In this document: one piece after another, positions 5,995 to 25,953 of the stretch
Position numbering within the stretch: the stretch's first letter is position 1
Layout of the letters: each line of letters begins with the position of its first letter
Source: Parcubacteria group bacterium GW2011_GWB1_45_10
GTDB lineage: Bacteria; Patescibacteriota; Minisyncoccia; UBA6257; Brennerbacteraceae
Assembly (NCBI GenBank): GCA_001001185.1
Contig: LCKC01000003.1
Coordinates: 1-32,000 of the forward strand
DNA: 32,000 bases
Direction of reading: 5' to 3'
The notes under the pieces: generated by a model
What the model was told of the DNA's origin: nothing
Databases searched by the model: none
What the model saw: the letters and a program-made list of their open reading frames with translations, nothing else
Program-made: the position numbers and the translations under genes

Positions 5995-5998
5995 ATTG

Positions 5999-10802: not shown

Positions 10803-11819
10803 CTAGATTCTAAATACTAATCGGGCTAGCCCGATAATTGAACCAATACCGTAGGCGAAGTGCCGGACGGCAAAGGCAATCACGAGAAATGGCAGAAGCA
10901 GAATATTTTTTTCCTTTAAGGAGATGCTTGCGGAGAAGTAAAGGGAAACGGCAAGATAAAGCGCGAGTACGGCGGCGGTAAGCCAATAGAACGGCGGAAG
11001 CCAGATTGAAATTATAAGCGGCACGATTAAACCCAAAACGAAGAAGAGTGAAACTAAGTGCCTTAATTTGAAGGGCGGAGCACCGTATTTCATCGGCAAT
11101 ATCGCCCAAATGCCGTCCTTGATATTATGTTTGAAGAAACTTCCGAACGTCGTTTTAGGGTAGTAGGTCGTCGAAATGTCCGGCGCGAAAAGGATTTTCC
11201 CGCCGGCCTTGTGGAGCCGGATGCTGAATTCCATATCCTGGCTGCGAGTGAGATTCTCGTTGAAATAGCCGATTTTCCGGAAAACCTCCTTGCGGAAGCA
11301 ACCGCCGAAAGCCGTATCCACCCACCGCGGTTTTCCTGCCTGCGCAGGCAGGCCGCCGCCCACCCGGAAACTTGCCCCGCCCGTACCGAAGAAACTGGAA
11401 AGAGCAAGGGCAATCGCTCTTGCAGAGTAGGTGCCTACCGCCGGTTTAGTAACAAGGGCGCCGCCCACGTTGTCCGCGCCGTAATCTTCAAGATAACGGA
11501 CTGATTTGGAGATATAGTCGGGATTGTAAGTGGAATGAGCGCCGGTAATCATTATGATGTCACCTTTCGCGTTTTTTACGCCGATGTTCATTGAGATGGG
11601 TGTCGTTATCTTCGGGTTTTCCAAAAGTTTTATGAAGGGATATTTTTTGGAATAACCCTCAACAATTTCCCTAGTTTTATCGGTACTTGCGCCGTTCACA
11701 ATAAGGATTTCCAGCCGGTCTTTGGGATAATCATTGGCAACGATCGAATCAAGGCAGCGACCGATGAATTTCTCTTCGTTCCGACAGGGAATGACGACGC
11801 TGACGAAAGGCCTAACCAT
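10803..11819 (-). CDS. Family 2 glycosyltransferase with C-terminal TM helices
   Basis: VSVVIPCRNEE...IVNGASTDKT, GT2 DxD-region architecture and a hydrophobic C-terminus. Confidence 0.85.
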   Translation of the reverse strand: MVRPFVSVVIPCRNEEKFIGRCLDSIVANDYPKDRLEILIVNGASTDKTREIVEGYSKKYPFIKLLENPKITTPISMNIGVKNAKGDIIMITGAHSTYNPDYISKSVRYLEDYGADNVGGALVTKPAVGTYSARAIALALSSFFGTGGASFRVGGGLPAQAGKPRWVDTAFGGCFRKEVFRKIGYFNENLTRSQDMEFSIRLHKAGGKILFAPDISTTYYPKTTFGSFFKHNIKDGIWAILPMKYGAPPFKLRHLVSLFFVLGLIVPLIISIWLPPFYWLTAAVLALYLAVSLYFSASISLKEKNILLLPFLVIAFAVRHFAYGIGSIIGLARLVFRI

Positions 11820-12465
11820 ATTTTTTCAAAATCCAAAAATCAACGTAGACGAGTTTTTGCCTCCTTTCTATCTTAAATCCCGCTTTTCTCATTGCGTTTT
11901 CCACATCCTTTATTTTATGTTTTCCGTCGCCAGTTTCCCATTGGTGATCAGGGTCAATTGCCACTTTTTGTCCGAAGGGGCGGAGAAACCATTTCAAAGT
12001 TGGGATTCTCACAATGTGCGGTTTGTGTTTCCAGGATGTCATGAAGAAGAGATAGTGGGAGCGGTGGGGAATGGTAATGAGAGCGGTGCTGCCGGGTTTG
12101 AGGTACGCATTCAGGTTTTTTAAAGCAATTTCCAAATCTTCAAACGGGATGTGCTCCAAGATGTCGGCCGCAATCACGCAATCGTACTTGCCGCTCGCTT
12201 CGGCAATAAATTTGCGGATATTGCTCTCGTAAGTCGGCGAAAGTTTAGGGTTCACGTCGAGAGTATCATATCTTTCCACGAAATCTTTCATTACGTTCTT
12301 TATCACACCCTCGCCGGGACCGACCTCCAGCACAGAGGTCGGTTTGATTTTAGTGAGCTCCTTCACGATTGCCGCGTACCTCATCCAGTTTATAAGGTCT
12401 AATTTGGCGAGGAATTCCCAGGGCGTGAATTTGAATTGCCGGGTTTTGTCGTATTCGGCAGACAT
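11812..12465 (-). CDS. Class I SAM-dependent methyltransferase
   Basis: Motif I VLEVGPGEG, and DCVIAADILEHIP. Start set at the ATG at 12465 because the longer ORF would overlap the divergent GT2 start. Confidence 0.75.
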   Translation of the reverse strand: MSAEYDKTRQFKFTPWEFLAKLDLINWMRYAAIVKELTKIKPTSVLEVGPGEGVIKNVMKDFVERYDTLDVNPKLSPTYESNIRKFIAEASGKYDCVIAADILEHIPFEDLEIALKNLNAYLKPGSTALITIPHRSHYLFFMTSWKHKPHIVRIPTLKWFLRPFGQKVAIDPDHQWETGDGKHKIKDVENAMRKAGFKIERRQKLVYVDFWILKKYG

Positions 12466-12472
12466 ACTTCTT

Positions 12473-12500
12473 ATCTTACTATATGCTAAGATACTTGTAA
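12473..12500 (-). promoter_or_regulatory. Promoter-like TTACAA-16-TAAGAT, 7 nt upstream of the ATG at 12465
   Basis: Minus strand reads TTACAA GTATCTTAGCATATAG TAAGAT AAGAAGT ATG. Confidence 0.4.
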
Positions 12501-12508
12501 GTTTTTTT

Positions 12509-13285
12509 ATGAATCCTAAAGTTTCGGTCATTATAACAACCTATAACCGGCCGGAGTCGCTGAAGCGGGCGATTAAGAGCGTTCTTAATCAGGACTTTAA
12601 AAACTTTGAATTGATTATTGTTGACGATAGGTCGGATGCGGAAACCGGAGAGGCGGTGGCGAGTTTTAAGGACTCGCGGATAAATTTTATACAAAATCCC
12701 AAAAATCTCGGCGGCACAAAATCTTTGAACATTGGGTTAAAGCACGCGAAGGGAAAATACGTCTGTCCTTTGGACGACGATGATGAGTGGATTGATGCTC
12801 AAAAACTATCCAAGCAATTGGCTTTTTTCAAGGCACACCCTGATTATCTGGCGGTTGGGACAAATGCAGAGGTGAGGTTGTTGAATGGGGCCGGTGAGCT
12901 TATTAAAATCGTGAAAACCAAAAACCCCCTTTTAAATGAGGAAATTCATGACCGGCTCATTTTCACGAACTTAATTGCTCATGTTTCTTCAATATATGGG
13001 CGGGAGAAAGCGCTTATAGTCGGCGGCTATGACGAAAATCTGGAGCGGGGGAAGGACTGGGATTTATTTTTAAAGCTTGGCAAACTTGGTAAATTGGCGA
13101 ATCTACCGGATATCACCGTCCGTTTTGATGAGAAGCGGAAAGTTAATTTAAAATATAAAGATTCAAGAGCAAAACTGCGGATAATCCGGAAACATAGAGA
13201 TTACCCGCATTCCTTACAGGCATTTACTGTTGAGTTCGCGAGAATGTGCGTTTTTAGAATATTAATGTTATTTCCTAGCAGGTAA
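12509..13285 (+). CDS. Family 2 glycosyltransferase
   Basis: From the ATG at 12509: MNPKVSVIITTYNRPESL...IIVDDRSD...LDDDDEW (DxD). The ORF-track N-terminal extension from 12344 is rejected. Confidence 0.85.
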   Translation: MNPKVSVIITTYNRPESLKRAIKSVLNQDFKNFELIIVDDRSDAETGEAVASFKDSRINFIQNPKNLGGTKSLNIGLKHAKGKYVCPLDDDDEWIDAQKLSKQLAFFKAHPDYLAVGTNAEVRLLNGAGELIKIVKTKNPLLNEEIHDRLIFTNLIAHVSSIYGREKALIVGGYDENLERGKDWDLFLKLGKLGKLANLPDITVRFDEKRKVNLKYKDSRAKLRIIRKHRDYPHSLQAFTVEFARMCVFRILMLFPSR

Positions 13286-13297
13286 TAACTATTTATA

Positions 13298-14227
13298 ATG
13301 AGCCCAATGAAAATCATAGTTACCGGCGGGGCAGGATTTATTGGTTCTCACGTTGTTGACGCTTATATTAAAAAAGGTCACCAGGTGGTTACCATTGACA
13401 ATCTTAGCACCGGCTTTCGCCGGAATCTTAACCGACGGGCAAAGTTTTATAAGGCCGATATTAGGAACTTAAAAGCAGTTCTTAAAATTTTTCAAAAAGA
13501 AAAACCAACTGTAGTTAATCACCACGCCGCTATTGCTGAAGTGGTGAAATCGCTCAAAAATCCGTTGCCGACCTACGAAGTAAACATTCTGGGCACCGCA
13601 AACGTTCTTCTTGCTTTTAGTCAATATGGCCGGGGCAAGAACCGCAGGTTTATTTTTTCGTCAACCGGCGGCGCGGTTTACGGCGACCCGGAAAAGATTC
13701 CGGTCACGGAAAATACGCCGCTTAAACCCATCTCACCTTATGGGCTCTCAAAAGTACTCGGGGAAGAAGTTATAAAATTTTACAGCCGCATTTACGATTT
13801 TGACTATGTAATTTTTCGTTATCCCAATGTTTATGGACCGCGGCAGAATCCGAAAGGTGAAGCCGGGGTGGTGGCGATTTTTCACGGTTTAATGAGAGTC
13901 GGTAAAAGACCGGCCATTTTCGGCGACGGCACGAAAACGCGGGACTATTGTCATGTTGAAGACGTCGTGCGGGCAAACGTCATCGGCCTCCGGCGCGGCA
14001 GAAACGAGATTTTGAATATTGGTTGGGGAAAGAAAATAAGCGACCAGATGATTTTCGATGCCTTGGCGAAAGAGTTGGGTTTTAAGAAGCCGCCCATTTA
14101 TGCACCCTTCAAGTCAGGAGAGGTTTATAGAATCGCAATTCGAGCCGAGAAAGCAAAAAGAGTTATTGGTTGGAAACCGAGAATCACATTGAGTGAGGGA
14201 ATTAGAAAATATTCTAATTCTTTTTAG
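13298..14227 (+). CDS. NAD-dependent nucleotide-sugar epimerase/dehydratase (GalE-like SDR)
   Basis: IVTGGAGFIGSH Rossmann motif and an SPYGLSK (YxxxK) catalytic motif; 309 aa. Confidence 0.8.
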   Translation: MSPMKIIVTGGAGFIGSHVVDAYIKKGHQVVTIDNLSTGFRRNLNRRAKFYKADIRNLKAVLKIFQKEKPTVVNHHAAIAEVVKSLKNPLPTYEVNILGTANVLLAFSQYGRGKNRRFIFSSTGGAVYGDPEKIPVTENTPLKPISPYGLSKVLGEEVIKFYSRIYDFDYVIFRYPNVYGPRQNPKGEAGVVAIFHGLMRVGKRPAIFGDGTKTRDYCHVEDVVRANVIGLRRGRNEILNIGWGKKISDQMIFDALAKELGFKKPPIYAPFKSGEVYRIAIRAEKAKRVIGWKPRITLSEGIRKYSNSF

Positions 14228-14936
14228 ATAAGTAATCTACCACTTCTTTATAACGCTCTAGCGTGCCGACATCCTTTAAATAGTCATCACATTCGTAGCC
14301 GTAAAAACTTTCTTCTTTTTCTAAAATTTTAGGCAGCAATTGGTGATCAATTTCATAATAAGTTTGAGCTGGTATATAATCCAGTATTTTCCTATTGAAT
14401 ATATAAACTCCTTTCATCGCTTTATAAATTTTTGGGAGTTCTCTATGAGGTTTTGGGTAGATTCTTAAAAATTTGAGATTCTCGTCCACTTCTACTAAAT
14501 CGGAATCAAAAGGATGGTCACTATTACCTATGAGTTCCATACCGATTATACCCCCTTTTTTATTGATAAAATCTTTCATCTTTGAATAGTTAACAAGACT
14601 AAAAATATCGCCATAGATTACAAAGAAATTTTCCCCGAGTTTGTCTTCAAAATTTTTAACTCCGCCAGCAGTTCCTTGTATTTTTGATTCAAGCACATAT
14701 TTTATTTTTACACCCCACTTCGTGCCGTCGCCAAGATAATTTGTAATTGTGTCCGGCAGATGAAATAGATTGATGAAAAATTCATTAACGCCATGTTTTT
14801 TAAACTGCTCGATATTACGTTCCAGAAGCGGTTTACCGAGAATCGGCACCATTACTTTTGAAAGCGCATCGGTTATAGGTCTAAGGCGTGTTCCTAAGCC
14901 AGCCGATAGTATTACTGCCTGGGTGACTTTTTGCAT
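14214..14936 (-). CDS. hddC: Sugar-1-phosphate nucleotidyltransferase, by context D-glycero-alpha-D-manno-heptose-1-phosphate guanylyltransferase
   Basis: AVILSAGLGTRLRP signature. It is last in the hddA-gmhA-hddC unit and has SD GAGGT 6 nt before the ATG. Confidence 0.65.
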   Translation of the reverse strand: MQKVTQAVILSAGLGTRLRPITDALSKVMVPILGKPLLERNIEQFKKHGVNEFFINLFHLPDTITNYLGDGTKWGVKIKYVLESKIQGTAGGVKNFEDKLGENFFVIYGDIFSLVNYSKMKDFINKKGGIIGMELIGNSDHPFDSDLVEVDENLKFLRIYPKPHRELPKIYKAMKGVYIFNRKILDYIPAQTYYEIDHQLLPKILEKEESFYGYECDDYLKDVGTLERYKEVVDYLSKKN

Positions 14937-14945
14937 TTCTTACCT

Positions 14946-15536
14946 CTACCGGACCAAGTGGTCAAAGTAATCTTGGAAATATTTTGTAATCAAATGAAGA
15001 ATAACGGCGTGAACTCCCTCTACCATCTCATATTTTCCTTTTTCGGTTTTCACTAAAATTTTGATGTCGGCCAGCTCGTTTAGTTTTCCACCATCAAAGC
15101 CGGAAAGTCCGATGACCGGCACGTTGTGAGTTTTGGCCAATTCAACAGCTTTGATAATGTTCGGCGAATTGCCCGAACCGGAGATCGCTATCACGCAATC
15201 GGTCTCTTGAAGATAATTCTGCAGGGGGCCGGCGAAAACCATTTCGTAGCCAACGTCGTTCGCCCAAGCCGAAAGTTCCTCCTCGGTAGTTGGCAGCCTG
15301 ATTGCCTGGAAGCGTTTCGGATGCTTTTCAAGATTGTGACTGAAGACGGTTTTGTTAAAATCGCTCACCCAGTGGGTGGCAAGTGCAAGAGAACCGCCGT
15401 TCCCGAAAATATAGATTCTGCCGTCGCGTTCGTAAATCGCCTGAAGAACGTTGATAGCTTTGGCAATTTCTTCGGCGGGTACGTTTCTTAATACCATCTC
15501 CGTATCCGCAATGAATTTTTTAATATAATCAATCAT
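14946..15536 (-). CDS. gmhA: SIS-domain sedoheptulose-7-phosphate isomerase
   Basis: 196 aa with IFGNGGSLALATHWVSDF and AISGSGNSPN motifs. ATGA overlap with hddA. Confidence 0.8.
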   Translation of the reverse strand: MIDYIKKFIADTEMVLRNVPAEEIAKAINVLQAIYERDGRIYIFGNGGSLALATHWVSDFNKTVFSHNLEKHPKRFQAIRLPTTEEELSAWANDVGYEMVFAGPLQNYLQETDCVIAISGSGNSPNIIKAVELAKTHNVPVIGLSGFDGGKLNELADIKILVKTEKGKYEMVEGVHAVILHLITKYFQDYFDHLVR

Positions 15537-16555
15537 ACCAATCCGGTCTGGTGCTGGTTATTAAGCAGTATATCCGTGCCGGAATTTATAAACCTGACGG
15601 GAATTTCTTTGAAATCGGTTAGTTGATTTTGGTTTGCAATCTTCCTCATTGATTCTCTTATATTGTTTTGTTTTTCTGGTGGAGCAATGAATAGAAAACA
15701 ACCCCCACCCCCGGCTCCAAGAATTTTCCCACCCCAAGCGCCGGCATTTAACCCCCCCTCATACAAGTCATTAATTAAAGAGTTAGAGATATTTGAAGCC
15801 AACATTCTTTTTCTTTGCCAACCCTCATGGAGCATTGCGGCCATACCTCTTAAATCGCCTTTTAATAATTTGTCTTTGAAATCATAAACGGAATCAGCCA
15901 TTTTTTTATAGGTTTCAAAATTTTGTTCAATCTTTGAACGCTGCTCACTTAAAACAATAGAAGCTGGCCTGGTAATGCCGGTGAAAAAGAGAAGAGTATG
16001 TTTTTCTAAGTCAGATTTTTTCTGATAATCAACTAATATCGGTTCAACATCTACCGAATTATTGCTATTGAATTGGAATATATTAAACCCGCCGAACGAA
16101 GCTGCATATTGGTCCTGTTTACCAATAGGTTCTTTAATAAGTTCTATTTCTAAGCGACTTGCCGCTTCAGCAGCAGCGGTTTTGTTTAAATTTTTGCCAT
16201 CATAAGCATAGAGACCTTTTAGCAGAGCCACCGAAAAGCTAGAAGAAGAACCAAGGCCAGTCTTAGCTGGGAGGTCGGCAAAAGAGCCGATTTCCAATCC
16301 GCTCTTAACGAAATTCAAGTCAAGCAGAGCAGCTTTTATTCGGGTATGTTCCAGCTCGCTTGGATGAGAGACAAATTCTGTCTTTTGGTATTTGACCGTA
16401 AATTTATCGATTAAAGGAGTCGGGTTGATGAGAACATAGACAAATTTATTTATAGTCGCCGATAAAACCCGCCCCGGATGGGTTTTGTAAAAATCGGGCA
16501 GGTCTGTTCCGCCACCGACAAAGCTGACTCTAAGCGGGGCTCTAACTAAAATCAT
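15533..16555 (-). CDS. hddA: GHMP kinase, D-glycero-alpha-D-manno-heptose-7-phosphate kinase type
   Basis: 340 aa with RAPLRVSFVGGGTDLPDFY at the N-terminus and a GLGSSSSF ATP-binding motif. Confidence 0.75.
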   Translation of the reverse strand: MILVRAPLRVSFVGGGTDLPDFYKTHPGRVLSATINKFVYVLINPTPLIDKFTVKYQKTEFVSHPSELEHTRIKAALLDLNFVKSGLEIGSFADLPAKTGLGSSSSFSVALLKGLYAYDGKNLNKTAAAEAASRLEIELIKEPIGKQDQYAASFGGFNIFQFNSNNSVDVEPILVDYQKKSDLEKHTLLFFTGITRPASIVLSEQRSKIEQNFETYKKMADSVYDFKDKLLKGDLRGMAAMLHEGWQRKRMLASNISNSLINDLYEGGLNAGAWGGKILGAGGGGCFLFIAPPEKQNNIRESMRKIANQNQLTDFKEIPVRFINSGTDILLNNQHQTGLV

Positions 16556-16563
16556 GAGTTTAT

Positions 16564-16591
16564 GTTATACCAAGAATAAGGAATATGGCAA
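16564..16591 (-). promoter_or_regulatory. Promoter-like TTGCCA-16-TATAAC, 8 nt upstream of the hddA ATG
   Basis: Minus strand reads TTGCCA TATTCCTTATTCTTGG TATAAC ATAAACTC ATG. The -35 overlaps the gmhB start codon. Confidence 0.4.
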
Positions 16592-17160
16592 GAAGACAAA
16601 AGCAACCAGCAATTATTCTGGACCGAGACGGGGTTTTAATTGATCGGCCCCTTTTGACGTGGCGGAAGAGTCAAATGAAACTTTCCAAAGGTATTGCCGG
16701 AGAAATAAAATTTTTCAATGAGAAAAAAGTTCCGGTTATCGTTATTACCAATCAGTCGGTCGTGGCGAGAGGGTTAATTTCCGAAAAAGGGGTGGTTAAC
16801 TTACATGAACTTTTAAATAAAAGATTGAAAAAAAGCGGCGCTCACGTAGATAAATTTTATTTTTGTCCACATCATCCGAGTGCCAACCTGAAACGTTATC
16901 GAGTTATTTGTCAATGTCGAAAACCGAAAATAGGTCTTTTCAAAAAAGCCGCCAAAGAATTAAATCTTAATTTAAGAAAGAGCGTCACTATCGGCGATAT
17001 GACGCAGGATATTTTAGCCGGCAAGCGAGCTAAAACCACAACTATTTTAATTGAAAGCGGTCGCGGCGGTCGGGATTATAAATTTAATACCAAACCGGAT
17101 TACAAAGTGAAGAACGTTATTAAAGCGTTGCGTCTTGCAAGGCGTTTGATCAAACGTTAA
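16585..17160 (+). CDS. gmhB: HAD-IIIA D,D-heptose-1,7-bisphosphate phosphatase
   Basis: AIILDRDGVL nucleophile motif and a Zn-finger-like insert CPHHPS...CQCRKPKIGLF typical of GmhB; SD AAGGA. Confidence 0.8.
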   Translation: MARRQKQPAIILDRDGVLIDRPLLTWRKSQMKLSKGIAGEIKFFNEKKVPVIVITNQSVVARGLISEKGVVNLHELLNKRLKKSGAHVDKFYFCPHHPSANLKRYRVICQCRKPKIGLFKKAAKELNLNLRKSVTIGDMTQDILAGKRAKTTTILIESGRGGRDYKFNTKPDYKVKNVIKALRLARRLIKR

Positions 17161-17182
17161 GACCTCCGGGGAGGAGATCTTA
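17158..17182. repeat. Degenerate copy of the GGAGGTC/GACCTCC palindromic element forming a bulged hairpin that spans both convergent stop codons
   Basis: GACCTCCGGGGA (17161-17172) is identical to 1809-1820. TAAGA/TCTTA and CCTC/GAGG arms pair around a 3-nt bulge. No U-tract. Confidence 0.45.
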
Positions 17183-17734
17183 CGCTTGCTTGAGGTAGTC
17201 GAGGATGCGGGAGAGGCAGGTTTCGAGTGGCTCGGTGGTGTCCACTCGCAGGTGGGGGACGACGAGCGGCTCAAATCGCTCCTTCACCCGAAGGTAGTCG
17301 TCGATCGTCGTCGCGGCCGAAGGATCGTTGCCGTTTCTTCGGGATTCGGCCCGTTCTCTTACGACGCTTAGGGTTTTCTCGTCCGGTATTTCCAAGAGGA
17401 TAGTTCTTGTCTTGATGCCGTATCTCCCCGGCAAGTCCACCAGAACTTCCTGTTGGTAATCCTGTCTTGAGAATGTTCCTTCGACAATTAACGACTCACC
17501 GAGAGTGAGAAGCCTTTCGACTACGCCGGCCATTGCCGGATAAGCTCGGCTCAGTTGGAAATCGTCGAGTTCACGGTTTCCGACATACATTCTTGATGGC
17601 CCGAAAAGCAGGGGTCGTAATCTGTCCACGGCCACGAAAGGGATTCCAAGAATTTCTCGGAGACGATCGCCGATTGTGGTTTTGCCGGTGAACTGGCAGC
17701 CGCAAAGAGCGACGAGTATCTGCGTCTGCGGCAT
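17180..17734 (-). CDS. P-loop NTPase, small-molecule or nucleotide kinase-like (AAA_33-like) protein
   Basis: Walker A GCQFTGKTT immediately after the start. Start set at the ATG at 17734, which has SD GGAGGTG 5 nt upstream. A promoter lies inside the longer ORF-track version. High GC. Confidence 0.65.
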   Translation of the reverse strand: MPQTQILVALCGCQFTGKTTIGDRLREILGIPFVAVDRLRPLLFGPSRMYVGNRELDDFQLSRAYPAMAGVVERLLTLGESLIVEGTFSRQDYQQEVLVDLPGRYGIKTRTILLEIPDEKTLSVVRERAESRRNGNDPSAATTIDDYLRVKERFEPLVVPHLRVDTTEPLETCLSRILDYLKQA

Positions 17735-17786
17735 GCGCCACCTCCTGTAGATTATCAATCGGTTTAAGGCCCGATAGCTGTTCTCG

Positions 17787-17815
17787 ATAGTAAGAATAAC
17801 TCCAACTATTGTCAA
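17787..17815 (-). promoter_or_regulatory. Sigma70-like promoter TTGACA-17-TACTAT for the P-loop gene
   Basis: Minus strand reads TTGACA ATAGTTGGAGTTATTCT TACTAT, about 52 nt upstream of the ATG at 17734. Confidence 0.45.
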
Positions 17816-17897
17816 GTAGCTTTTATTCTGTTATTTTTAATTCTGGAAACTCGACAATCTACTAGAGACACAAACCAGAAAACAGGGGAGAGCGAGA

Positions 17898-19607
17898 ATG
17901 AAAATCCTCATGGTTTACCTGCGGCCGTCGCCGGTTTCGCCGCAGAAGAATTCCGCGCTCTCCGTGATTTATCCGGGGAGGGCGGCGGAGGAAGCCGGGC
18001 ACGATGTGGATTACTGGGATGCGCGCTTGGACAGCGAGAAGAAGTTGTGGTTTCTCACCGAGTGGGCCGACGTCGTGGCGATAAGCTCGCTCTCCGGTTT
18101 TCAGCTTGGAGAGTCAATTCGTTTCGCCCGCCGGGTAAGGGAATTGTATCCCAATAAACCCCTTGTTTGGGGCGGGGTGCATCCGACGTTCCAGCCCGTT
18201 CAGTCGCTCCGGGAACCCTTCGTTGACTTCTGCGTTATCGGTGAAGGCGAGAAGCGGTTTCCACGCCTCCTCGAAGTAATTGAGGGGGGTCGCGGGTTTC
18301 GATGTATTGATGGCTTGGGCTACAAAAGGACAAGCATCGGGTACGAACCGAGTCCGGAAGAAGAAGAGGTTTTCACGGACCCGGAGGCGCACCCCGGCGG
18401 TCTCGTGCTCCGGCCGATTCCCGGCCGCGAAGGCATGGACCGAATCGAGCTTCACGACGCGATGGGCGTTTTCGGCGACATTGCCGTGAACCCCCGCGGT
18501 CCGCTTCTTGACTTTGCGACCGAGTACGTTTCGGCGGTTTCGGAGAGAACGCTTCGTCTTTTCCGGGCGGCGGCGAAACGCAACGAGGTCATCTTCCAGG
18601 CCTCCCGCGGGTGTAACTGGACGCCGACCTCCTGCGAATTCTGTTCGGTCGGCGGCCAGTACACGGAGCAAGTGCCGGATCCGCGGACGGGCGAAGTAAA
18701 AACCCGGTCGCGGTACCGGTTCATTCCGTTCGAGCTTTGGTCGAAGGATTTAGGTGAGATCTACGACGCCGAACCTTTCGACTTCGTTGAGCTCGAAGAC
18801 GAGAATTCTTCGCATTTCGTGAGGGATTGGCGGTACGCCGAGTTCTTGCGAGAGCGGGGAGTGAAGTATCACCTTCACCTGCGGTCAGATCAGCTTCAAG
18901 ATGAGGAGGTTGTTTCCAAGCTCGCCGCGACGGGCTGTATCCGGATCCACATCGGCGCCGAGTCCGGGAACGAAGAGACACTTCGGACGATGCGGAAGAA
19001 CGAATCCGTCGCGGATCACTACAAGGCCGCGCGGGTGCTCGCCGAGTACGGTATCGAAGGAGTTTACACCTGGATTATCGGCAACCCCGGCGAGAAACCT
19101 CCCGAGATAATGGATACGCTTCGCGTCTCGGACGAGGTTCGGGCGCTCCATCCGCTAGGCAAGAGCCGGGCGACCATCTATGTGCTCATGCCGCTCCCGG
19201 GCACCATCGCTTTCAACCGGGCGGAGAAAGAGGGCTGGCCGTTGCCGACGACGATGGAGGGGTGGACGGATATGTCGGCGGCCTACAATCCGACCCTGCC
19301 CAAGTGGATGAACAACATCTACTTCATCGCCGGCTTTCATCACAATCGTCACCACAAAACGCCGCAGAATTTCCCCGGTTGGTGGCGGCTCCTCATTCTG
19401 CCTTTCGAGGTCGTGATGGAGTGGCGGTGGCGTCAGGGGATCAGAACGGCGAATATCGCCTACTTCAGCTGGTTTGACCTGGAATACTGGTGCATCGCCA
19501 AGCTCTTGTCTTGGCGAAGCCAGCGTTCCGTCGGACAGACGTCTCAAGGGCGTAGTCAGGTGCCCAAGCTTTTGGAACGGCTGATGCCGGGCCTGGCCGG
19601 GCACTAG
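17898..19607 (+). CDS. B12-binding-domain radical SAM enzyme (class B-like)
   Basis: 569 aa. N-terminal Rossmann-like B12-type domain (VVAISSLSG, WGGVHPTF, CVIGEGE), then SRGCNWTPTSCEFCSV and a TIM-barrel-type core (IRIHIGAESGN). SD GGGGAGAG. High GC. Confidence 0.75.
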   Translation: MKILMVYLRPSPVSPQKNSALSVIYPGRAAEEAGHDVDYWDARLDSEKKLWFLTEWADVVAISSLSGFQLGESIRFARRVRELYPNKPLVWGGVHPTFQPVQSLREPFVDFCVIGEGEKRFPRLLEVIEGGRGFRCIDGLGYKRTSIGYEPSPEEEEVFTDPEAHPGGLVLRPIPGREGMDRIELHDAMGVFGDIAVNPRGPLLDFATEYVSAVSERTLRLFRAAAKRNEVIFQASRGCNWTPTSCEFCSVGGQYTEQVPDPRTGEVKTRSRYRFIPFELWSKDLGEIYDAEPFDFVELEDENSSHFVRDWRYAEFLRERGVKYHLHLRSDQLQDEEVVSKLAATGCIRIHIGAESGNEETLRTMRKNESVADHYKAARVLAEYGIEGVYTWIIGNPGEKPPEIMDTLRVSDEVRALHPLGKSRATIYVLMPLPGTIAFNRAEKEGWPLPTTMEGWTDMSAAYNPTLPKWMNNIYFIAGFHHNRHHKTPQNFPGWWRLLILPFEVVMEWRWRQGIRTANIAYFSWFDLEYWCIAKLLSWRSQRSVGQTSQGRSQVPKLLERLMPGLAGH

Positions 19608-19620
19608 CAAGTAGCAAGAG

Positions 19621-19669
19621 ACAGCACTCTCGTGAGAGGGTGCTGTTTTGCTTTATTTGTAAAGCAAAA
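19621..19669 (+). terminator. Tandem intrinsic terminator hairpins after the radical SAM gene
   Basis: Hairpin 1: ACAGCACTCTC-GTGA-GAGGGTGCTGT (19621-19646, 11 bp including 1 G-U) followed by a T-run. Hairpin 2: TTTTGCTTTA-TTTG-TAAAGCAAAA (19646-19669, perfect 10 bp). Confidence 0.7.
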
Positions 19670-19748
19670 ATTACTCTAAAATATCTGATCTTCCAAATCT
19701 TTGAAATTGATGCTAAATTATAAATAATAACTGAATACGCCTAACCCT

Positions 19749-19924: not shown

Positions 19925-20656
19925 ATGCTTAAGAAGATACTAAAAACTGTATTAAGTGCTATATATAGATTACTTTTAAGACCATCTATAAGGTATGTTT
20001 TTCCAATAACCGTTGATAGATATCCTTTATTGGGATATGGAGACAGGGAAAAGATATTTTTCTATGCAATGGAGTTTGCAGCAGGCGGGGAAAAACTTGG
20101 CGGCGATTACTTAGAATTTGGTGTTGGTAACGGCGGCAGTTTTATTATTGCTTTTCATTTTGCGAAAAAACTCGAGAAGTTGAATTCAATGAAATTTTAC
20201 GCCTTTGATTCTTTTCGGGGGCTGCCAGAGCCTAAAGAAATTGATTTAGAAGAAAAGATTTTTAAAAAAGGAGAATATATGTGTTCAGAAGACGAGTTTT
20301 TAGAAAATATAAGAAAAAACGGGGTTGATTTAAATAGGGTAATTACTGTCCCCGGCTGGTATAAGGAGGTTCTAAATAAAGAAACTAAAGATAAACTTCA
20401 AATTCAGCGAGCAGCAGTTGTTTTTATCGACTGCGATCTTTACGAATCGGCTAATCTTGTTTTAAATTTTATAACTGATTATCTTGTGGATGGCTCTGTT
20501 CTTATATTTGATGATTGGTTTTGTTTTCGAGGGAATTCTAACAAGGGCGAACAAAAAGCTTTTGGAGAGTGGCTTAGAAAAAATCCAGAGATAAAGGTGT
20601 CAGAATTCTATAAATTTAGCTGGCATGGTAATTCATTTATTATTCATAAGGACTAG
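19925..20656 (+). CDS. TylF/MycF-family (macrocin-O-methyltransferase-like) SAM-dependent sugar O-methyltransferase
   Basis: 243 aa with YLEFGVGNGGS, FDSFRGLPEP and FIDCDLYESA, hallmarks of the TylF family. Low GC. Confidence 0.75.
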   Translation: MLKKILKTVLSAIYRLLLRPSIRYVFPITVDRYPLLGYGDREKIFFYAMEFAAGGEKLGGDYLEFGVGNGGSFIIAFHFAKKLEKLNSMKFYAFDSFRGLPEPKEIDLEEKIFKKGEYMCSEDEFLENIRKNGVDLNRVITVPGWYKEVLNKETKDKLQIQRAAVVFIDCDLYESANLVLNFITDYLVDGSVLIFDDWFCFRGNSNKGEQKAFGEWLRKNPEIKVSEFYKFSWHGNSFIIHKD

Positions 20657-20726
20657 GTCTTAAAGATATTTTATATAACTTTTTACTCCTCTTTATTTTT
20701 TGTTGTTGTGCTATTATTGTGATTAA

Positions 20727-21758
20727 ATGACGCGATGCAATATTTGTGGTAACGAAAATACCAAAAAAATGTATAGTGATCACGTCGGTTACATAGAAAA
20801 TGATGTTTACGATATTTACGGATGTGATAGTTGTGATGCTCAATTTGTTTCACCGTTGAAAGTCGATCCAAAATTATATGATATTATCTATTCGGATAGG
20901 ACTAATGAGATAGGACCTGCAGGATACGGTCAGCACTTAATTCAAGCTAAAAAAATTTCAAATCACGATAAGCCATTAGAGTTTTTAATAGAGACAGACA
21001 TCAATTATTCAGTTGTCGGGGATTATCTTAAAGACAAGAAAAATCTGGATATTCTGGAAGTGGGCGCTGGTTATGGATATTTAACTTACGCTCTGAAAAA
21101 ATTAAATCATAATTCATTCGGTATCGATATTTCTCGCGTGACGATTGATTATGCGCTCCAAACTTTTGGACCAAATTACAAATGCGCAGATTTAGAATCT
21201 TTTATCGGAAGCATAGGCAATAACCGGAAATTTGATCTTATCATAGCTATAGAGCTGGTTGAGCATCTTTCTAACCCAGAAAAGTTCATTAAAAATTGTT
21301 TTTCAATCCTTAAACCGAACGGTAGAGTGTTAATTACCACCCCTAATAAAGGTTATTATCGAAAAGGTAGTATTTGGATTTCTGATTTGCCGCCCGTTCA
21401 TCTGTTTTGGTTGAGCCCAAAAACCTTTAACTATATTGCGGAAGAAAATGGTTTAAACTTGAAATATTTCGACCTAGCTTCTCATATATTAAAACATGAC
21501 AAAATTAACCTTCTCATCAACTATTTGCGCAGTAGAGAAAAGATCAGAATAAGGCCGCATGTTTTTAAAGCATCTGGAGAACTCAATTTAGAAAATCATA
21601 ATTCTTTAAACCAACCGTCGTTGTTGAAGAAGCTTGTGCGCTTTATACTTGTTGATATAGCTCCAATAAGAATATTGTCTAATTTTCTTTATCGTAAAAT
21701 TATAAATCCAAAATTTCCAAATACCTCAACGCAAGCTTTATTATTATGGAGAGGATAA
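20727..21758 (+). CDS. Class I SAM-dependent methyltransferase with an N-terminal CxxC...CxxC zinc-ribbon
   Basis: CNICGN...CDSCDA at the N-terminus, motif I ILEVGAGYG, then LIIAIELVEHL and LKPNGRVLITTPN. Confidence 0.75.
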   Translation: MTRCNICGNENTKKMYSDHVGYIENDVYDIYGCDSCDAQFVSPLKVDPKLYDIIYSDRTNEIGPAGYGQHLIQAKKISNHDKPLEFLIETDINYSVVGDYLKDKKNLDILEVGAGYGYLTYALKKLNHNSFGIDISRVTIDYALQTFGPNYKCADLESFIGSIGNNRKFDLIIAIELVEHLSNPEKFIKNCFSILKPNGRVLITTPNKGYYRKGSIWISDLPPVHLFWLSPKTFNYIAEENGLNLKYFDLASHILKHDKINLLINYLRSREKIRIRPHVFKASGELNLENHNSLNQPSLLKKLVRFILVDIAPIRILSNFLYRKIINPKFPNTSTQALLLWRG

Positions 21759-21761
21759 ATT

Positions 21762-22430
21762 ATGTTGGAATTTTTAAGAAAGCATAAAAAGCTCGTATAC
21801 TTATTCCTCCCCACACTCCGGATTTCCAGTGTGGGCTGGATTAGTACCATGATTGAACTTCGTAGGCAGTTTAATAAATTAAAGCCCGGCATCGTGTTAG
21901 ATATCGGCGGCGGAGACGCGCCCTACAAAAAATTTGTACCACACACAAAGTACATGACCTTAGATGTTGACAAATCTAGTAATCCCGATATTTTATCTGA
22001 CGCCCATAATATTCAATGGCAATCAAATTATTTTGATACCATTATTTCAATTGAAACACTGGAACATCTTCGCGAACCGCAAAAATCCATTAATGAAATT
22101 TATAGGTTACTGAAGCCGGGAGGGGTCTGTGTGCTCTCTACGAGGTTTTTACATCCTTATCATCCGGGACCAGAGGATCATTATAGATTTACGTGGGATT
22201 CTTTAAGACATCTTTTTAGAAAATTTGATAATATTGAAATTTATCATGTTGGAAACAGATTACAATTATTCCATCAGTTTATAAACTTTGTAGATAGTGA
22301 GAATTTTTTAAAACAATTTATTACGACAGGAATGGCAATTTTTTTGAACATATTAAATCCTATTTTTGCAAGAATTCGCTTTAAAAAGACTAAATTCCCC
22401 TTAGGTTTTGTAGTATATGCAAGAAAATAA
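21762..22430 (+). CDS. Class I SAM-dependent methyltransferase (Methyltransf_11-like)
   Basis: VLDIGGGDAPY motif I, then IISIETLEHL and LKPGGVCVLS. Confidence 0.75.
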   Translation: MLEFLRKHKKLVYLFLPTLRISSVGWISTMIELRRQFNKLKPGIVLDIGGGDAPYKKFVPHTKYMTLDVDKSSNPDILSDAHNIQWQSNYFDTIISIETLEHLREPQKSINEIYRLLKPGGVCVLSTRFLHPYHPGPEDHYRFTWDSLRHLFRKFDNIEIYHVGNRLQLFHQFINFVDSENFLKQFITTGMAIFLNILNPIFARIRFKKTKFPLGFVVYARK

Positions 22431-23364
22431 ATACAAAAATTCTAAAGCAACTATTATTGTAAATACTTATAACCGTTCTAAAATTTTAGCCGAACGTTCT
22501 TTGCCGAGTGCTCTAAATCAAACTTATAAGAATTTTGATGTTATTATTGTTGACGATTGTTCAAAAGACGACACTGAAGAAATAGTTAAAGAATTTCAAA
22601 AGAAATATTCCGACCTTAGATATATAAAACAAAAAGGAAATAAAGGATTAGCTGCTTCAAGGAATACCGGCGCAAGAAAAGCAAGAGGAGAGTATGTTGT
22701 TTGTTTGGACGATGATGACGCTCTAGACCAAAAATTTTTAGAAATTACCGTTCCAGTTTTAGATAGATTACCAAAAGACTTTGGTGGCGTTGGTTGTGGT
22801 AGAAAAATCATTTATCCGGAGGCTGAAATTTATTCTCCGCCAGCGCATGCAAATCAACTTTACATTTCAATAGACGACGGCTTCCTTTTAAGGAAAAGCA
22901 TATTTTCCAAAATTAATTATGACGAGAATTTAAGATGGAGCGAAGATGCTGATTTCGGTATTCAGTTTTTCAAAAATTTTAAAATACACATGATAGATAA
23001 ACCATTATTACTGAAATACGGTCATAAAATAGAGGCATCTAAGAAAACCGATTATTTCTCTTTCAGCTTTCCTTCAGAACAAGTTCTTGTTGATATGCAA
23101 AAGTATATTGATAAAAACTTGCCATTTTTTTATGAACGGCGAGACAAAAAAGAAATTGCTTATATTTATCGTATGGCCGGGAGAAATTATTGTTGGGGTG
23201 GGCATATGTTTAAAGGAATTTCTTTTTTATGGCGAGCGTGCGTTACAAGACCAGTCCCCAGAAATATTTTGAATCTTTTGATGGCTCTCTGCGGTCCTTT
23301 TATTTATCGCTATTATTTAGCATTTGAAACAAGGATGATACGTCTTATACGTTCTCGGCTTTAA
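22417..23364 (+). CDS. Family 2 glycosyltransferase
   Basis: ATIIVNTYNRSK...IIVDDCSKDDT...CLDDDDA (DxD). 14-nt overlap with the upstream gene. Confidence 0.85.
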   Translation: MQENKYKNSKATIIVNTYNRSKILAERSLPSALNQTYKNFDVIIVDDCSKDDTEEIVKEFQKKYSDLRYIKQKGNKGLAASRNTGARKARGEYVVCLDDDDALDQKFLEITVPVLDRLPKDFGGVGCGRKIIYPEAEIYSPPAHANQLYISIDDGFLLRKSIFSKINYDENLRWSEDADFGIQFFKNFKIHMIDKPLLLKYGHKIEASKKTDYFSFSFPSEQVLVDMQKYIDKNLPFFYERRDKKEIAYIYRMAGRNYCWGGHMFKGISFLWRACVTRPVPRNILNLLMALCGPFIYRYYLAFETRMIRLIRSRL

Positions 23365-23374
23365 TACTTAGATA

Positions 23375-24211
23375 ATGATTAGCTACATTTTTTCGAACTT
23401 AGGAATGATTTGGTTTTTGCTTCAGCGCGCCAAGAATTGGAAAGCGCGGATTACCTTCGCCTCCTATATCGCAAGGAACATCCTGCGCCGGCTCATTAAA
23501 AGCGTTCCGTTGCCGGCCGAGATTTTTGCGGAAACAAAAGATTTAGATTTTTATTTTTCGCCTGGCAAAAGCGAACTCTCTCCCTACGTGGAGATTTACC
23601 GCGACCGCGGCTATGAAAAAGACGGGCGGTTTATTGCGAAGCCCGGCGAGACGGTTATAGATGTCGGCGCCCACATCGGCTTTTACGCCATCTGCGAGGC
23701 GAAACGAGTTGGAGAAAAAGGGAAAGTTTTTGTCATTGAACCGAACCCCGATACTTTCGGACGGCTTTTAAAAAACATAAAAGCCAATGATTTAGAGAAC
23801 GTTGTTCCTTTGAATAACGCCGCCACTTCGCGGAAAGGAAGGGTTTTACTCCGGGTTTCCGTAAGTTCGAGCGAAGCCAATACGATTATGGCCTCCGGCA
23901 CAACAGACGATTACGGAGAGGAAATTAAAATCCAAGCCATCGGTCTTGATGAAATTGTTAAAAAATATAACCTTTCTAAGATTGATATTTTGAAAATTGA
24001 CGCCGAAGGCGCGGAAGCGGAAGTGGTTGAGAGCGGTCTCAAAAAGGCCTTGCCGATAACGGAGAAAATCGTGACGGAAACCCACTCTGAAAACCTGAAA
24101 AACGAAGTTAAAAAACTTGTTTTGGGGAACGGCTTTGAACTTGTTGCCGAAGCGTTCTCCGGCGTGAACGCTTTAGGGAGAAATACGATGCTCTATTTCG
24201 TCAGAATTTAA
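23375..24211 (+). CDS. FkbM-family methyltransferase
   Basis: VIDVGAHIGFYA, VFVIEPNPDTF and ILKIDAEGAE, the typical FkbM pattern. Confidence 0.8.
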   Translation: MISYIFSNLGMIWFLLQRAKNWKARITFASYIARNILRRLIKSVPLPAEIFAETKDLDFYFSPGKSELSPYVEIYRDRGYEKDGRFIAKPGETVIDVGAHIGFYAICEAKRVGEKGKVFVIEPNPDTFGRLLKNIKANDLENVVPLNNAATSRKGRVLLRVSVSSSEANTIMASGTTDDYGEEIKIQAIGLDEIVKKYNLSKIDILKIDAEGAEAEVVESGLKKALPITEKIVTETHSENLKNEVKKLVLGNGFELVAEAFSGVNALGRNTMLYFVRI

Positions 24212-24869
24212 CTTCAACGATGCCGCCGTGTTTGCTCCACTCGCCGGGCCAGACATCTTCGGTGAATTTAGTGAGGGTGACTTTCGCCGCGGGCGCGATT
24301 TCTTTGAATAAGGTTTCATAATTGTAGGCCCAGTGGCCCAAATACTCCCAATCTTTCACCGAATTCCATTCAACGAGAATCACCGCATACTTCGCGATTC
24401 TCGCGAGTTCTCTTAATACCCCCTTAATCTTGTTTTTGCCGACGTAAATCAAGACCGCATCCGTAAAGACGACGTCAAAACTTTTGTCAGGAATGTTTTT
24501 CAGATTAAGAACGTTGCCTACCCGGAGTTCAACGTTCTTTATCTTCTGGAGTTCGAGGTATTTTTTGCCGGTTTGAATGGCCGAACCGCTTAGGTCGATG
24601 CCGGAAAACTTCGCTTGCGGCAGTTTTCGGGAGAGCAGGATGAGGTTCGGCCCAGAAGCGCAGCCGATTTCAAGCGCGTTTTGCGGATTGTATTTCGATA
24701 TTTTTTCGACGAGCAGCGACCGGTGGGGATGGGCGAGCGATTGTTTGGAAACGTAATTTTCCGGCCACCGCCGGTCGATGAAATGCCGGAAGCGCCAGAA
24801 CAATAGGTCGCTGGTCGTGCCCAGAACTTTATTTGATATTCTTTTAGCTATTTTTAATAACGTTCTCAT
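24201..24869 (-). CDS. Class I SAM-dependent methyltransferase
   Basis: ALEIGCASGPN motif I and DVVFTDAVLIYV. The ORF-track start at 24920 is a TTG. I prefer the ATG at 24869, which still overlaps the GT4 gene by 26 nt. Confidence 0.7.
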   Translation of the reverse strand: MRTLLKIAKRISNKVLGTTSDLLFWRFRHFIDRRWPENYVSKQSLAHPHRSLLVEKISKYNPQNALEIGCASGPNLILLSRKLPQAKFSGIDLSGSAIQTGKKYLELQKIKNVELRVGNVLNLKNIPDKSFDVVFTDAVLIYVGKNKIKGVLRELARIAKYAVILVEWNSVKDWEYLGHWAYNYETLFKEIAPAAKVTLTKFTEDVWPGEWSKHGGIVEVKF

Positions 24870-25953
24870 ACAATTTTTCAACCTTAGCCATTTCCACGTA
24901 ATAGTTATTTTTTTCTTCAATAATTTGTCGGTTGCGGGCGCCTTGCGATTTCCTCAAACTCTCGTTATTTATGAGAGCTATTATTTTTTCGGCGAGCACC
25001 TCCGGGGATTTTATGGGAATCACAAACTCATTATCCACCCACTCTTTGTTGTCGCCCGAGTCAGTGACGATGACTGGCAGACCCGTCGCCATCGCTTCGG
25101 CCGTTGAAGAGGAGAGACCACTGTCGGAGAGAGCGGTGGAAACGTAAATATCGGCTTCTTGAAGATGGCGCGGTAACTCTTCGTTATTAATTTTACCCAA
25201 AAATTTAACAGAACTTTCAATATTGAGTTCTTTAGCCAGGTTTTCGAGTTTTTCTTTTTCCGGCCCGCCGCCCGCGAGCAGAAATTCAGCATTGGGGGCG
25301 GATTTTAGGACAATAGCCGCCGCCTTTATTAATGTTTCAATGTCGTAAATCGGTACTAAGCTACGCAACGAAATAACTTTCAATGTTTTGGAGGTTGAAC
25401 CTCCTAAAGGAGGTTCAACCTCCTTATGTTGGACTGGTCGAAATTTCTCCACGTCGGTGCCGAAGCGGATAAGATGAATTTTTTCTCGGTCGGCTCCCAA
25501 ACCAATGAGTTTTTGGAACGTATTTTCGCCGTCGCAGGTGTAGGTGTCGGCCCGGTCAACGATGAACATGACTGAGAATTTTCTGATTAATCCGCCAAGA
25601 AGGATGTCTGAGCCCCAGGGAGTGAGGACCGCCGGATGAAAATTCGCGAGGGCGGCGGCGAGGCCGTAAGTGCCGGCTGAGTGGACGTGTAAAAGGTCCG
25701 GCCGCTCAGCCCGCAAAATCCCCTTGATTTGTTTTACCGCTTGCGGCAAATAACGGATGGCAAATCGGCCGTTGATATCGGCAAGAGGCGAGGGCGTTAT
25801 CTCGTAAAATTTTACTTTTTTAACCAAATTCTCCGCTTCTGGAATGGACGGCGCAAAAGAAATCCAGATGATTTCGTGGCCGCGGCTCACGAAAAATTTT
25901 ATCCAGCGGACGCTGTGGATGGAATTGGCACCGGCAAGGTAGGCTATTTTCAT
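24844..25953 (-). CDS. Family 4 (GT-B fold) glycosyltransferase
   Basis: 369 aa with a two-Rossmann layout and EX7E-type C-terminal motif (STAEAMATGLPVIVTDSGDNKEWV). Confidence 0.85.
   Translation of the reverse strand: MKIAYLAGANSIHSVRWIKFFVSRGHEIIWISFAPSIPEAENLVKKVKFYEITPSPLADINGRFAIRYLPQAVKQIKGILRAERPDLLHVHSAGTYGLAAALANFHPAVLTPWGSDILLGGLIRKFSVMFIVDRADTYTCDGENTFQKLIGLGADREKIHLIRFGTDVEKFRPVQHKEVEPPLGGSTSKTLKVISLRSLVPIYDIETLIKAAAIVLKSAPNAEFLLAGGGPEKEKLENLAKELNIESSVKFLGKINNEELPRHLQEADIYVSTALSDSGLSSSTAEAMATGLPVIVTDSGDNKEWVDNEFVIPIKSPEVLAEKIIALINNESLRKSQGARNRQIIEEKNNYYVEMAKVEKLYENVIKNS
25390..25423. repeat. Perfect 15-bp inverted repeat GGAGGTTGAACCTCC-TAAA-GGAGGTTCAACCTCC read in frame inside the GT4 gene
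   Basis: Unit 2 (25409-25423) is the exact reverse complement of unit 1 (25390-25404). On the minus strand it encodes ...KEVEPPLGGSTSK... in the inter-domain linker. Confidence 0.85.

Follow-up and report, generated by a model that had tools for sequence, protein, structure and literature searches.

A heptose-linked family of class B radical SAM enzymes with an expanded cluster-binding loop, represented in a surface-glycan gene cluster of a Parcubacteria genome

Class B radical S-adenosylmethionine (SAM) enzymes, which carry a B12-binding domain, perform some of the hardest alkylations in biology, and almost all characterised examples that we know of act in antibiotic, cofactor, lipid or peptide pathways. 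Here we describe an enzyme of this class encoded by the Parcubacteria group bacterium GW2011_GWB1_45_10 (assembly GCA_001001185.1). Its open reading frame (ORF) lies within the first 32,000 nucleotides of contig LCKC01000003.1; this whole stretch is referred to below as the window. The protein has the cysteine spacing CX6CX2C and belongs to a clade in which this loop expansion is retained and whose genes recur beside those for heptose activation.

Unusual spacings between the first and second cysteines of radical SAM enzymes have been described before. The paper presenting RadicalSAM.org lists CX4, CX5, CX6, CX7, CX8, CX9 and CX11 variants in different megaclusters, with CX6CX2C under Megacluster-5-2, CX7CX2C under Megacluster-2-5 and the B12-binding subgroup under Megacluster-2-1; the clade described here is therefore not expected in Megacluster-5-2. 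Two class B radical SAM C-methyltransferases, PoyC (polytheonamide) and MpcB (clavusporin), carry CX7CX2C, and PoyC has been described as an active B12-dependent C-methyltransferase. Expanded loops are thus compatible with catalysis, and the altered spacing is a variant of a known phenomenon that gives no reason to doubt cluster binding. All three proteins are of class B with an expanded first interval, but PoyC and MpcB have CX7 and act on peptides that are made by the ribosome and modified after translation (RiPPs), whereas the protein studied here has CX6. Its score against TIGR03975, the model of PoyC-type RiPP C-methyltransferases, was far below the cut-off (62 bits against 282), so it belongs to a different family. 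No precursor peptide gene was identified in the window, and the neighbourhood consists of glycan genes.

The following features were distinguished in the gene and its product.

17898..19607, + strand: ORF of the class B (B12-binding domain) radical SAM enzyme, 569 amino acids (aa) (ORF call, Pfam, model)
17964..18269, + strand: N-terminal Rossmann-like B12-binding domain, residues 23-124 (PF02310, E=4e-16, 59.4 bits against a cut-off of 32.1)
18603..19124, + strand: radical SAM core, residues 236-409 (PF04055, E=2e-14, 54.4 bits against a cut-off of 29.5)
18612..18644, + strand: cluster-binding motif C239-N-W-T-P-T-S-C246-E-F-C249 (CX6CX2C; direct reading and conservation of the triad)
19125..19550, + strand: family-specific C-terminal helical domain with the block SAAYNP...NNIYFIAGFHHNRxHKTxQNFPGWW (conservation, AlphaFold2)

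An initial annotation, made from the sequence alone, had described a 569-aa B12-domain radical SAM enzyme whose only clustered cysteines are encoded at 18612, 18633 and 18642, and reading of the codons bears this out. The segment SRGCNWTPTSCEFCSVGG (18603-18659) encodes S-R-G-C-N-W-T-P-T-S-C-E-F-C-S-V-G-G, in which C239, C246 and C249 are specified by TGT (18612-18614), TGC (18633-18635) and TGT (18642-18644), respectively. Six residues separate C239 from C246 and two separate C246 from C249, hence CX6CX2C. The protein contains seven cysteines (residues 112, 136, 239, 246, 249, 347 and 532), and only those of the triad were invariant in alignments of 100 homologues and of 40 members of the clade defined below. 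The remaining four are scattered and isolated, as the annotation had also stated, and they are variable: C347 is replaced by Val in a subclade of 620-650-aa proteins, and C112, C136 and C532 vary among the homologues. Nothing in the cysteine pattern therefore points to an auxiliary Fe-S site. R237 and G238 were invariant alongside the triad in the 100 sequences, F248, the aromatic residue preceding the third cysteine, was conserved in at least 90%, and W241 was invariant in the clade.

Both Pfam assignments lie above their cut-offs, in agreement with the class first proposed. DUF4070, which had been named for comparison, was not among the four Pfam families reported for the protein at E values up to 1, a listing from which the search filters drop most matches above E ~0.1. 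Within the B12-binding domain, S63 (in S63-x-L) was kept in at least 90% of the clade, and G92 and G93 were invariant in the 40-sequence clade alignment; we take these to be the SxL and GG elements of such domains. A DxHxxG histidine loop is not present, which is usual for class B enzymes. The C-terminal domain (19125..19550) matched no Pfam family, although the structure predicted for it is of high confidence; its invariant residues in the same clade alignment were S460, A461, N472, N483, H486, K487, N491, P493 and G494.

An AlphaFold2 model computed from a 100-sequence alignment had a mean predicted local distance difference test score (pLDDT) of 93.5 and a predicted template modelling score (pTM) of 0.92, with values of 97 and 93 for the motif-loop blocks; only the last 18 residues appeared disordered (tail pLDDT below 50). 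The best Foldseek matches in the PDB were MgmA (9ccb), OxsB (5ul3), TsrM (6wte), AprD4 (6fd2), TokK (7kdy) and CysS (9n1c), with E values of 2e-17 to 4e-13, query-normalised TM-scores of ~0.5-0.58 and identities of 13-18%. These were followed by MiaB and RimO, and HydE, BioB and LipA were matched as well, which points to a radical SAM partial (beta/alpha)6 barrel. None of the NCBIfam equivalog models reached its cut-off (best TIGR04013, 78 bits against 251), and the models for BchE, HpnJ, HpnR, PhpK, BzaD, MgmA/TIGR04014, AprD4, ApyD and ArsL were all far from theirs. Its domains and fold matches thus identify the protein as a class B radical SAM enzyme whose family is uncharacterised, and the ORF almost certainly encodes an intact enzyme with the C239/C246/C249 triad. 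From its sequence, it would be expected to use cobalamin.

The extreme C terminus of the 557-589-aa homologues is formed by a conserved tail, ...P-K-L-L-E-x-x-x-P-G-L-A-G-H (~19560-19604 in the window). Most of the 620-650-aa proteins finish with a related ...ETLAGH sequence, and a subclade of 480-aa proteins has no such tail. This GH tail could be a ligand or docking tail.

A word-indexed search returned 109 homologues, in an alignment spanning 100% of the length of the protein. They fall into the following groups.

P0001-P0038: identity 47-100%, mostly 557-589 aa, C-x-W-S-x-T-S-C-x-F-C in nearly all (P0036 has CQWQVGHC)
P0055-P0072: identity 33-40%, 620-650 aa, CPWS[TPSV][DT]SC
P0039-P0054: identity ~45-49%, ~480 aa, CPW, then CX6, CX8 or CX9
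P0053: identity 47%, 500 aa, CPWRC (CX3)
More distant relatives: identity below 36%, varied length, CX3CX2C

The heptose-linked clade with the CX6 loop was defined as P0001-P0072 without P0053. All 71 of its members analysed have an expanded loop, 60 of them CX6 and 11 CX8 or CX9. A maximum-likelihood tree of 97 sequences placed the 71 expanded-loop proteins on one side of a single branch with a support value (SH-aLRT) of 96. Their sister is P0053, with CX3, and the 25 other outgroup rows all have CX3CX2C. The CX8/CX9 forms are nested within one subclade, so that three changes on the tree explain the whole distribution of spacings; the Parcubacteria protein pairs with P0002 inside the clade. 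P0002 and P0005 are 69-70% identical to it. Since expanded spacing is confined to one clade whose sister and outgroups have CX3, the insertion arose once and was then kept. The suggestion in the initial annotation that CX6CX2C stands in place of CX3CX2C and might define a subfamily was thus borne out: both close and distant relatives carry CX3CX2C, and the expansion marks a clade of ~70 proteins with a single origin. The expansions in PoyC and MpcB presumably arose independently of it.

The insertion itself was located as follows.

18621..18629, + strand: clade-specific three-residue insertion T242-P243-T244, approximate, the register being ambiguous (alignment with P0053, CPW---RC, and with PDB chains)

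Alignments with TokK and MgmA (RGC---PxxCxFC) likewise showed a three-residue gap, here facing 'NWT'. The inserted residues are strongly conserved within two subclades, as WSxTS and WSTDS. The loop consensus of the clade is C-x-W-S-x-[T/D]-S-C-x-F-C, for which the Parcubacteria protein has CNWTPTSCEFC together with the C-terminal HHNxxHKTxQNFPG block. The family is compact: an exhaustive phmmer search of 1.84 billion representative proteins yielded only 56 clusters (50% identity) at E <=1e-30. Among 146 further phmmer representatives, CX3CX2C was found in 122 of the 137 with a scorable motif, and the longer spacings were mostly artefacts of additional upstream cysteines.

Inteins were observed in three distant homologues, P0111, P0123 and P0124 (755-832 aa), placed exactly in the radical SAM cluster loop. 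They were recognised by Pfam Intein_splicing matches, one also with an HNH endonuclease and one with LRR repeats. The loop of P0111 reads RGC-PYR-[CLSGDT...VKN]-C-SF-C; the second cluster cysteine is the +1 extein nucleophile, so splicing would restore CX3CX2C. A separate observation concerns the contig (L010) of P0084, a CX3 relative with 31% identity. It is viral-looking, with many short same-strand ORFs, and encodes, besides the B12-domain radical SAM protein, an HNH endonuclease, an AP2 domain, an Acb2/Tad1-like hairpin protein, glycosyltransferases and methyltransferases; it could represent a glycan module of a phage or giant virus.

The window contains a surface-polysaccharide cluster. 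It comprises two Wzy-like polymerase/ligase genes, a Wzx-type flippase, an initiating sugar transferase, GT2 and GT4 glycosyltransferases, a uridine diphosphate (UDP)-sugar dehydrogenase, aminotransferases, a split transketolase-like pair and six SAM-dependent methyltransferases, all six of which, counted in the initial annotation, were recognised by Pfam. The genes most relevant here are listed below.

14214..14936, - strand: HddC-like sugar-1-phosphate nucleotidyltransferase (PF00483; homologues in 9 of 19 clade loci)
14946..15536, - strand: GmhA-like SIS-domain isomerase, sedoheptulose-7-phosphate isomerase type (SIS_2 and SIS domains)
15533..16555, - strand: HddA-like GHMP kinase, heptose-7-phosphate kinase type (GHMP_kinases_N and _C)
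16585..17160, + strand: GmhB-like HAD phosphatase (Hydrolase_like, HAD_2 and PNK3P domains)
11812-12531, 19925-20656, 20727-21758, 21762-22430, 23375-24211 and 24201-24920: six SAM-dependent methyltransferase genes (Pfam)

A complete set for nucleoside diphosphate (NDP)-heptose (GmhA, HddA, GmhB, HddC) is thus located directly upstream of the radical SAM gene, at a distance of 0.7-3.7 kb. The association recurs elsewhere in the clade. Six of the eight annotated homologue loci (L003, L004, L005, L007, L008 and L009) have a GHMP kinase within ~6 kb of the radical SAM gene, accompanied by SIS, HAD and/or nucleotidyltransferase genes, and all three subclades are represented among them. A motif-based DNA scan of metagenome contigs provided 25 more loci, and the window proteins were compared with all loci by tblastn. 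An alignment-based contig scan, dominated by the generic GEGE pattern, returned no clade members, only relatives with 21-28% identity; 80 loci around these distant CX3 B12-domain radical SAM genes served as controls. Of the clade loci, 18 have flanks of 4 kb or more, and 12 of these carry an HddA-, GmhA- or GmhB-like gene, compared with 1 of the 80 controls (Fisher p = 3e-10, for loci that are not phylogenetically independent). Taken singly, homologues of HddA occurred at 11/19 clade loci against 1/80 controls, those of GmhB at 9/19 against 0/80, and those of GmhA at 5/19 (62-77% identity) against 0/80. Three loci (L103, L113 and L115) had no heptose genes in their short flanks, yet they too are glycan clusters. 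A sugar or heptose substrate, originally a guess from the neighbouring genes, has thereby gained strong comparative support, and a glycan or heptose is the likely substrate of the enzyme.

Two further observations concern the cluster as a whole. It takes up at least 32 kb, ~6% of the genome. At 4840-7728 on the - strand, a DegT-family aminotransferase/dehydratase is followed by the transketolase-like pair (N-terminal half 6916-7728, C-terminal half 5999-6988); homologues of the pair occur in clade loci L005 and L095, and other thiamine pyrophosphate (TPP) enzymes in L004 and L006. The presence of these TPP enzymes hints that the same sugar pathway includes carbon branching.

The assembly (496 kb, 25 contigs, 93% complete) has 45.3% GC, and the radical SAM gene has 59.5%, with a GC content at third codon positions (GC3) of 0.74 against 0.37 in the HddA, 0.365 in the GmhB and 0.28 in the downstream methyltransferase gene. 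Searches of 40 relatives from its order and of a 400-genome sample of the phylum turned up no member of the clade. Its foreign composition and its absence from these 440 relatives make the gene look horizontally acquired. High GC as a property of the family was considered as an explanation and set aside: the gene exceeds its flanks by 0-12 points in 18 of 19 distinct loci and is lower in the Nitrospirae locus, and a GC3 of 0.74 against 0.37 cannot be explained by amino-acid content alone. HddA-like genes were present in 7 of the 40 relatives of the order.

The gene has a divergent neighbour of similar composition.

17180..17815, - strand: P-loop AAA_33 kinase-like ORF (PF13671, E=5e-11; GC 53.5%, GC3 0.61)

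This ORF shares the high-GC island of the radical SAM gene and appears to have been acquired with it; together they look like a recent addition to a heptose pathway that is patchy in the order. It was rejected as a functional partner: a single partial homologue was found, near a radical SAM homologue in L104, and the 19 clade loci and the 80 controls contained none. Its listed TTG start overlaps a promoter-like TTGACA, and the ATG ending at 17734 (MPQTQILVALCGCQFTGKTT...) is a likelier start. On the other side, the radical SAM gene is abutted by a block (19925-23364) of three methyltransferases and a GT2 gene with 32-35% GC, ~11 points under the genome mean. In base composition the glycan cluster is a patchwork with three or more origins.

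We propose the following role for the clade. C239, C246 and C249 would ligate the SAM-binding [4Fe-4S] cluster, and the three-residue insertion between the first two would lengthen the loop and leave the cluster ligands unchanged. Reductive cleavage of SAM would generate a 5'-deoxyadenosyl radical, which would abstract a hydrogen from the sugar; the resulting sugar radical might then be methylated by methylcobalamin, which a second SAM molecule would regenerate. The enzymes would act in surface-glycan clusters, tied specifically to NDP-heptose activation (GmhA, HddA, GmhB, HddC), in the radical modification of a heptose-derived sugar, whether nucleotide-activated or already in the glycan; it is from the recurrence of heptose genes beside the clade that we infer such a substrate for the family. 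With the methylation step left aside, we assign this reading a probability of roughly 0.6. C-methylation of an unactivated carbon, proposed by analogy, would be the most likely single reaction, though somewhat short of an even chance. More speculative is a wider view in which the clade would catalyse an undescribed radical modification of activated heptose for the surface glycans of uncultured bacteria, the W-S-x-T/D-S insertion and the HHNxxHKTxQNFPG domain would form a sugar-nucleotide pocket, and capture by a bacterium of the candidate phyla radiation (CPR) would diversify its surface with the aid of scavenged cobalamin. The product would be, for example, a C-methyl or chain-extended heptose, or that of a radical rearrangement. 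We consider this combination possible rather than probable.

Several findings weigh against the proposed role. The clade has no characterised member and all NCBIfam equivalog scores fall far short of their cut-offs, so the reaction is deduced by analogy, and AprD4, the best PDB match by sequence, shares the architecture but is a 1,2-diol dehydratase and not a methylase. The closest homologue, P0002 from a Nitrospirae metagenome-assembled genome, adjoins DUF362 and three amine-oxidase-like genes, not heptose genes, and is the sole clear exception to the association. Loop length differs (CX6, CX8, CX9) within the 480-aa subclade, which suggests that the exact spacing is perhaps not critical; judging from the alignments, the cluster-binding loop is evidently tolerant of length change. 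Finally, neither NrdJ above its cut-off nor the C-terminal domain of bacterial MetK (PF02773) was found in the 496-kb, 93% complete genome, and no other protein there has a B12 domain (the enzyme is its only PF02310 match and one of its two radical SAM proteins), which leaves the supply of cobalamin and SAM unexplained. If the enzyme is active, cobalamin and probably SAM are therefore scavenged. The lack of a PF02773 match stands beside the six SAM-dependent methyltransferases and the radical SAM enzyme of the window alone.

The alternative that survives best keeps a heptose-derived substrate and replaces methylation by another reaction, e.g. AprD4-like 1,2-diol dehydration or deoxygenation, epimerisation, or a ring contraction or carbocycle formation of the OxsB or HpnJ kind, with a B12-like domain that is vestigial or handles cobalamin differently. 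AprD4 is not known to use cobalamin, and its example shows that such a domain can occur without this cofactor. Besides its sequence match (6fd2), OxsB is among the top fold matches, and the HpnJ, BchE and AprD4 models are among the sub-threshold NCBIfam matches. Genes for short-chain dehydrogenase/reductase (SDR) epimerases or dehydratases occur at 11 of the 19 clade loci, and the encoded enzymes could act as AprD3 does with AprD4, by reducing a keto product formed through radical chemistry; SDR genes are, however, common in the controls too (14/80). Neither a second cobalamin-dependent protein nor an evident source of B12 is seen in the genome, and this missing supply of cobalamin and SAM is the main argument for a B12-independent or an idle enzyme. 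On the other hand, the clade has kept the SxL-like and GG elements of its B12 domain, and most characterised class B enzymes are methylases, as the papers on PoyC and MpcB state. We regard a reaction other than methylation as rather unlikely, though it is the strongest of the alternatives.

A target outside the glycan, such as a lipid or a polyprenyl carrier of the envelope, is improbable. Heptose genes would then be adjacent merely through shared envelope gene islands, a view that draws on the surroundings of P0002, where DUF362 and three amine-oxidase/phytoene-desaturase-like genes occur and no sugar genes, and on the long C-terminal helices of the model, whose richness in Trp, Arg and hydrophobic residues might allow membrane association. 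The heptose link holds, however, in three subclades only 33-46% identical to one another, and it is specific to heptose genes (GmhA and GmhB in 0/80 controls) rather than to glycan genes generally.

Signals for expression were recognised on both sides of the gene, and an AT-rich promoter-like region lies upstream of it.

17885..17890, + strand: Shine-Dalgarno-like GGGGAG, 7 nt upstream of the ATG (sequence reading)
19618..19649, + strand: terminator-like hairpin with a 14-bp stem and a T run after it, directly past the stop codon

Equally doubtful is the view that the gene arrived by a recent transfer and serves no function in an ultra-small symbiont without cobalamin synthesis. Its foreign composition, its absence from 440 sampled relatives, its status as the only B12-domain gene of the genome and the failure to find MetK agree with this, but the ORF is full-length and retains every clade-invariant residue, which counts against decay, a ribosome-binding site, a promoter-like region and a terminator-like hairpin accompany it, the genome encodes the heptose pathway that usually accompanies the family, and a host could supply the cofactors by scavenging.

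An RNA element was identified between the terminator-like hairpin and the low-GC methyltransferase block. It is a full-length match to LOOT RNA (Rfam RF03000; 19738-19863, + strand; 84.4 bits against a gathering score of 46.4), is single-copy in the genome and is preceded by a promoter-like site at 19701-19728. As a component of the radical SAM system it was rejected: it was absent from 11 clade loci and present in 5 of 40 relatives without the radical SAM gene, in which no window-like genes occur within ~1.5 kb of it. It is therefore an RNA of the lineage.

Radical modification of a heptose-derived surface sugar, if this is indeed the role of the clade, would draw attention to chemistry of this type in uncultured bacteria, where a compact, sharply bounded family tied to a pathway of the guanosine diphosphate (GDP)-heptose type points to undescribed radical reactions on surface sugars. 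The motif C-x-W-S-x-T/D-S-C-x-F-C together with the C-terminal block provides a search signature for such genes. The natural series of CX3, CX6, CX8 and CX9 loops, with an intein at the same loop, bears on the tolerance of the cluster-binding loop, and a lone B12-domain gene in a 0.5-Mb genome raises the question, open to experiment, of how far CPR bacteria scavenge cofactors. The weight of the finding rests on the heptose association and the capture by an ultra-small genome more than on the spacing, which has precedent.

Comparison with the structurally known relatives places the protein more closely. TokK (7kdx/7kdy), TsrM, OxsB, CysS and MgmA have, like it, a B12-type Rossmann domain followed by a radical SAM barrel, and these cobalamin-dependent enzymes share the three-cysteine motif after R-G with an aromatic residue before the third cysteine. 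It differs from all of them in its family-specific C-terminal domain and in its context of heptose and glycan genes, as opposed to genes for antibiotics, RiPPs or methyl-coenzyme M reductase (MCR) modification; TokK and MgmA, moreover, have CX3CX2C and not CX6CX2C. AprD4 (6fd2), the radical SAM 1,2-diol dehydratase of apramycin biosynthesis, was the best PDB match by sequence (E=1.4e-7, residues 319-448). It has the same two-domain architecture and its substrate is a sugar (paromamine), but it belongs to an aminoglycoside pathway, and the protein scored only 34 bits against a cut-off of 500 with its model, NF033070. The closest functional analogy for the proposed reaction is offered by GenK, GenD1 and Fms7-type enzymes, cobalamin-dependent class B sugar C-methyltransferases of aminoglycoside pathways; these act on unactivated sugar carbons, their substrates being pseudo-oligosaccharide antibiotics. 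The literature searched yielded nothing relevant on B12 radical SAM enzymes with heptose, O-antigen or capsule, and neither a published class B family with CX6CX2C nor any member of the clade was found in it. Expanded spacing was thus already known from other enzymes; what is new here is an uncharacterised heptose-linked class B family with a fixed expansion of the cluster loop.

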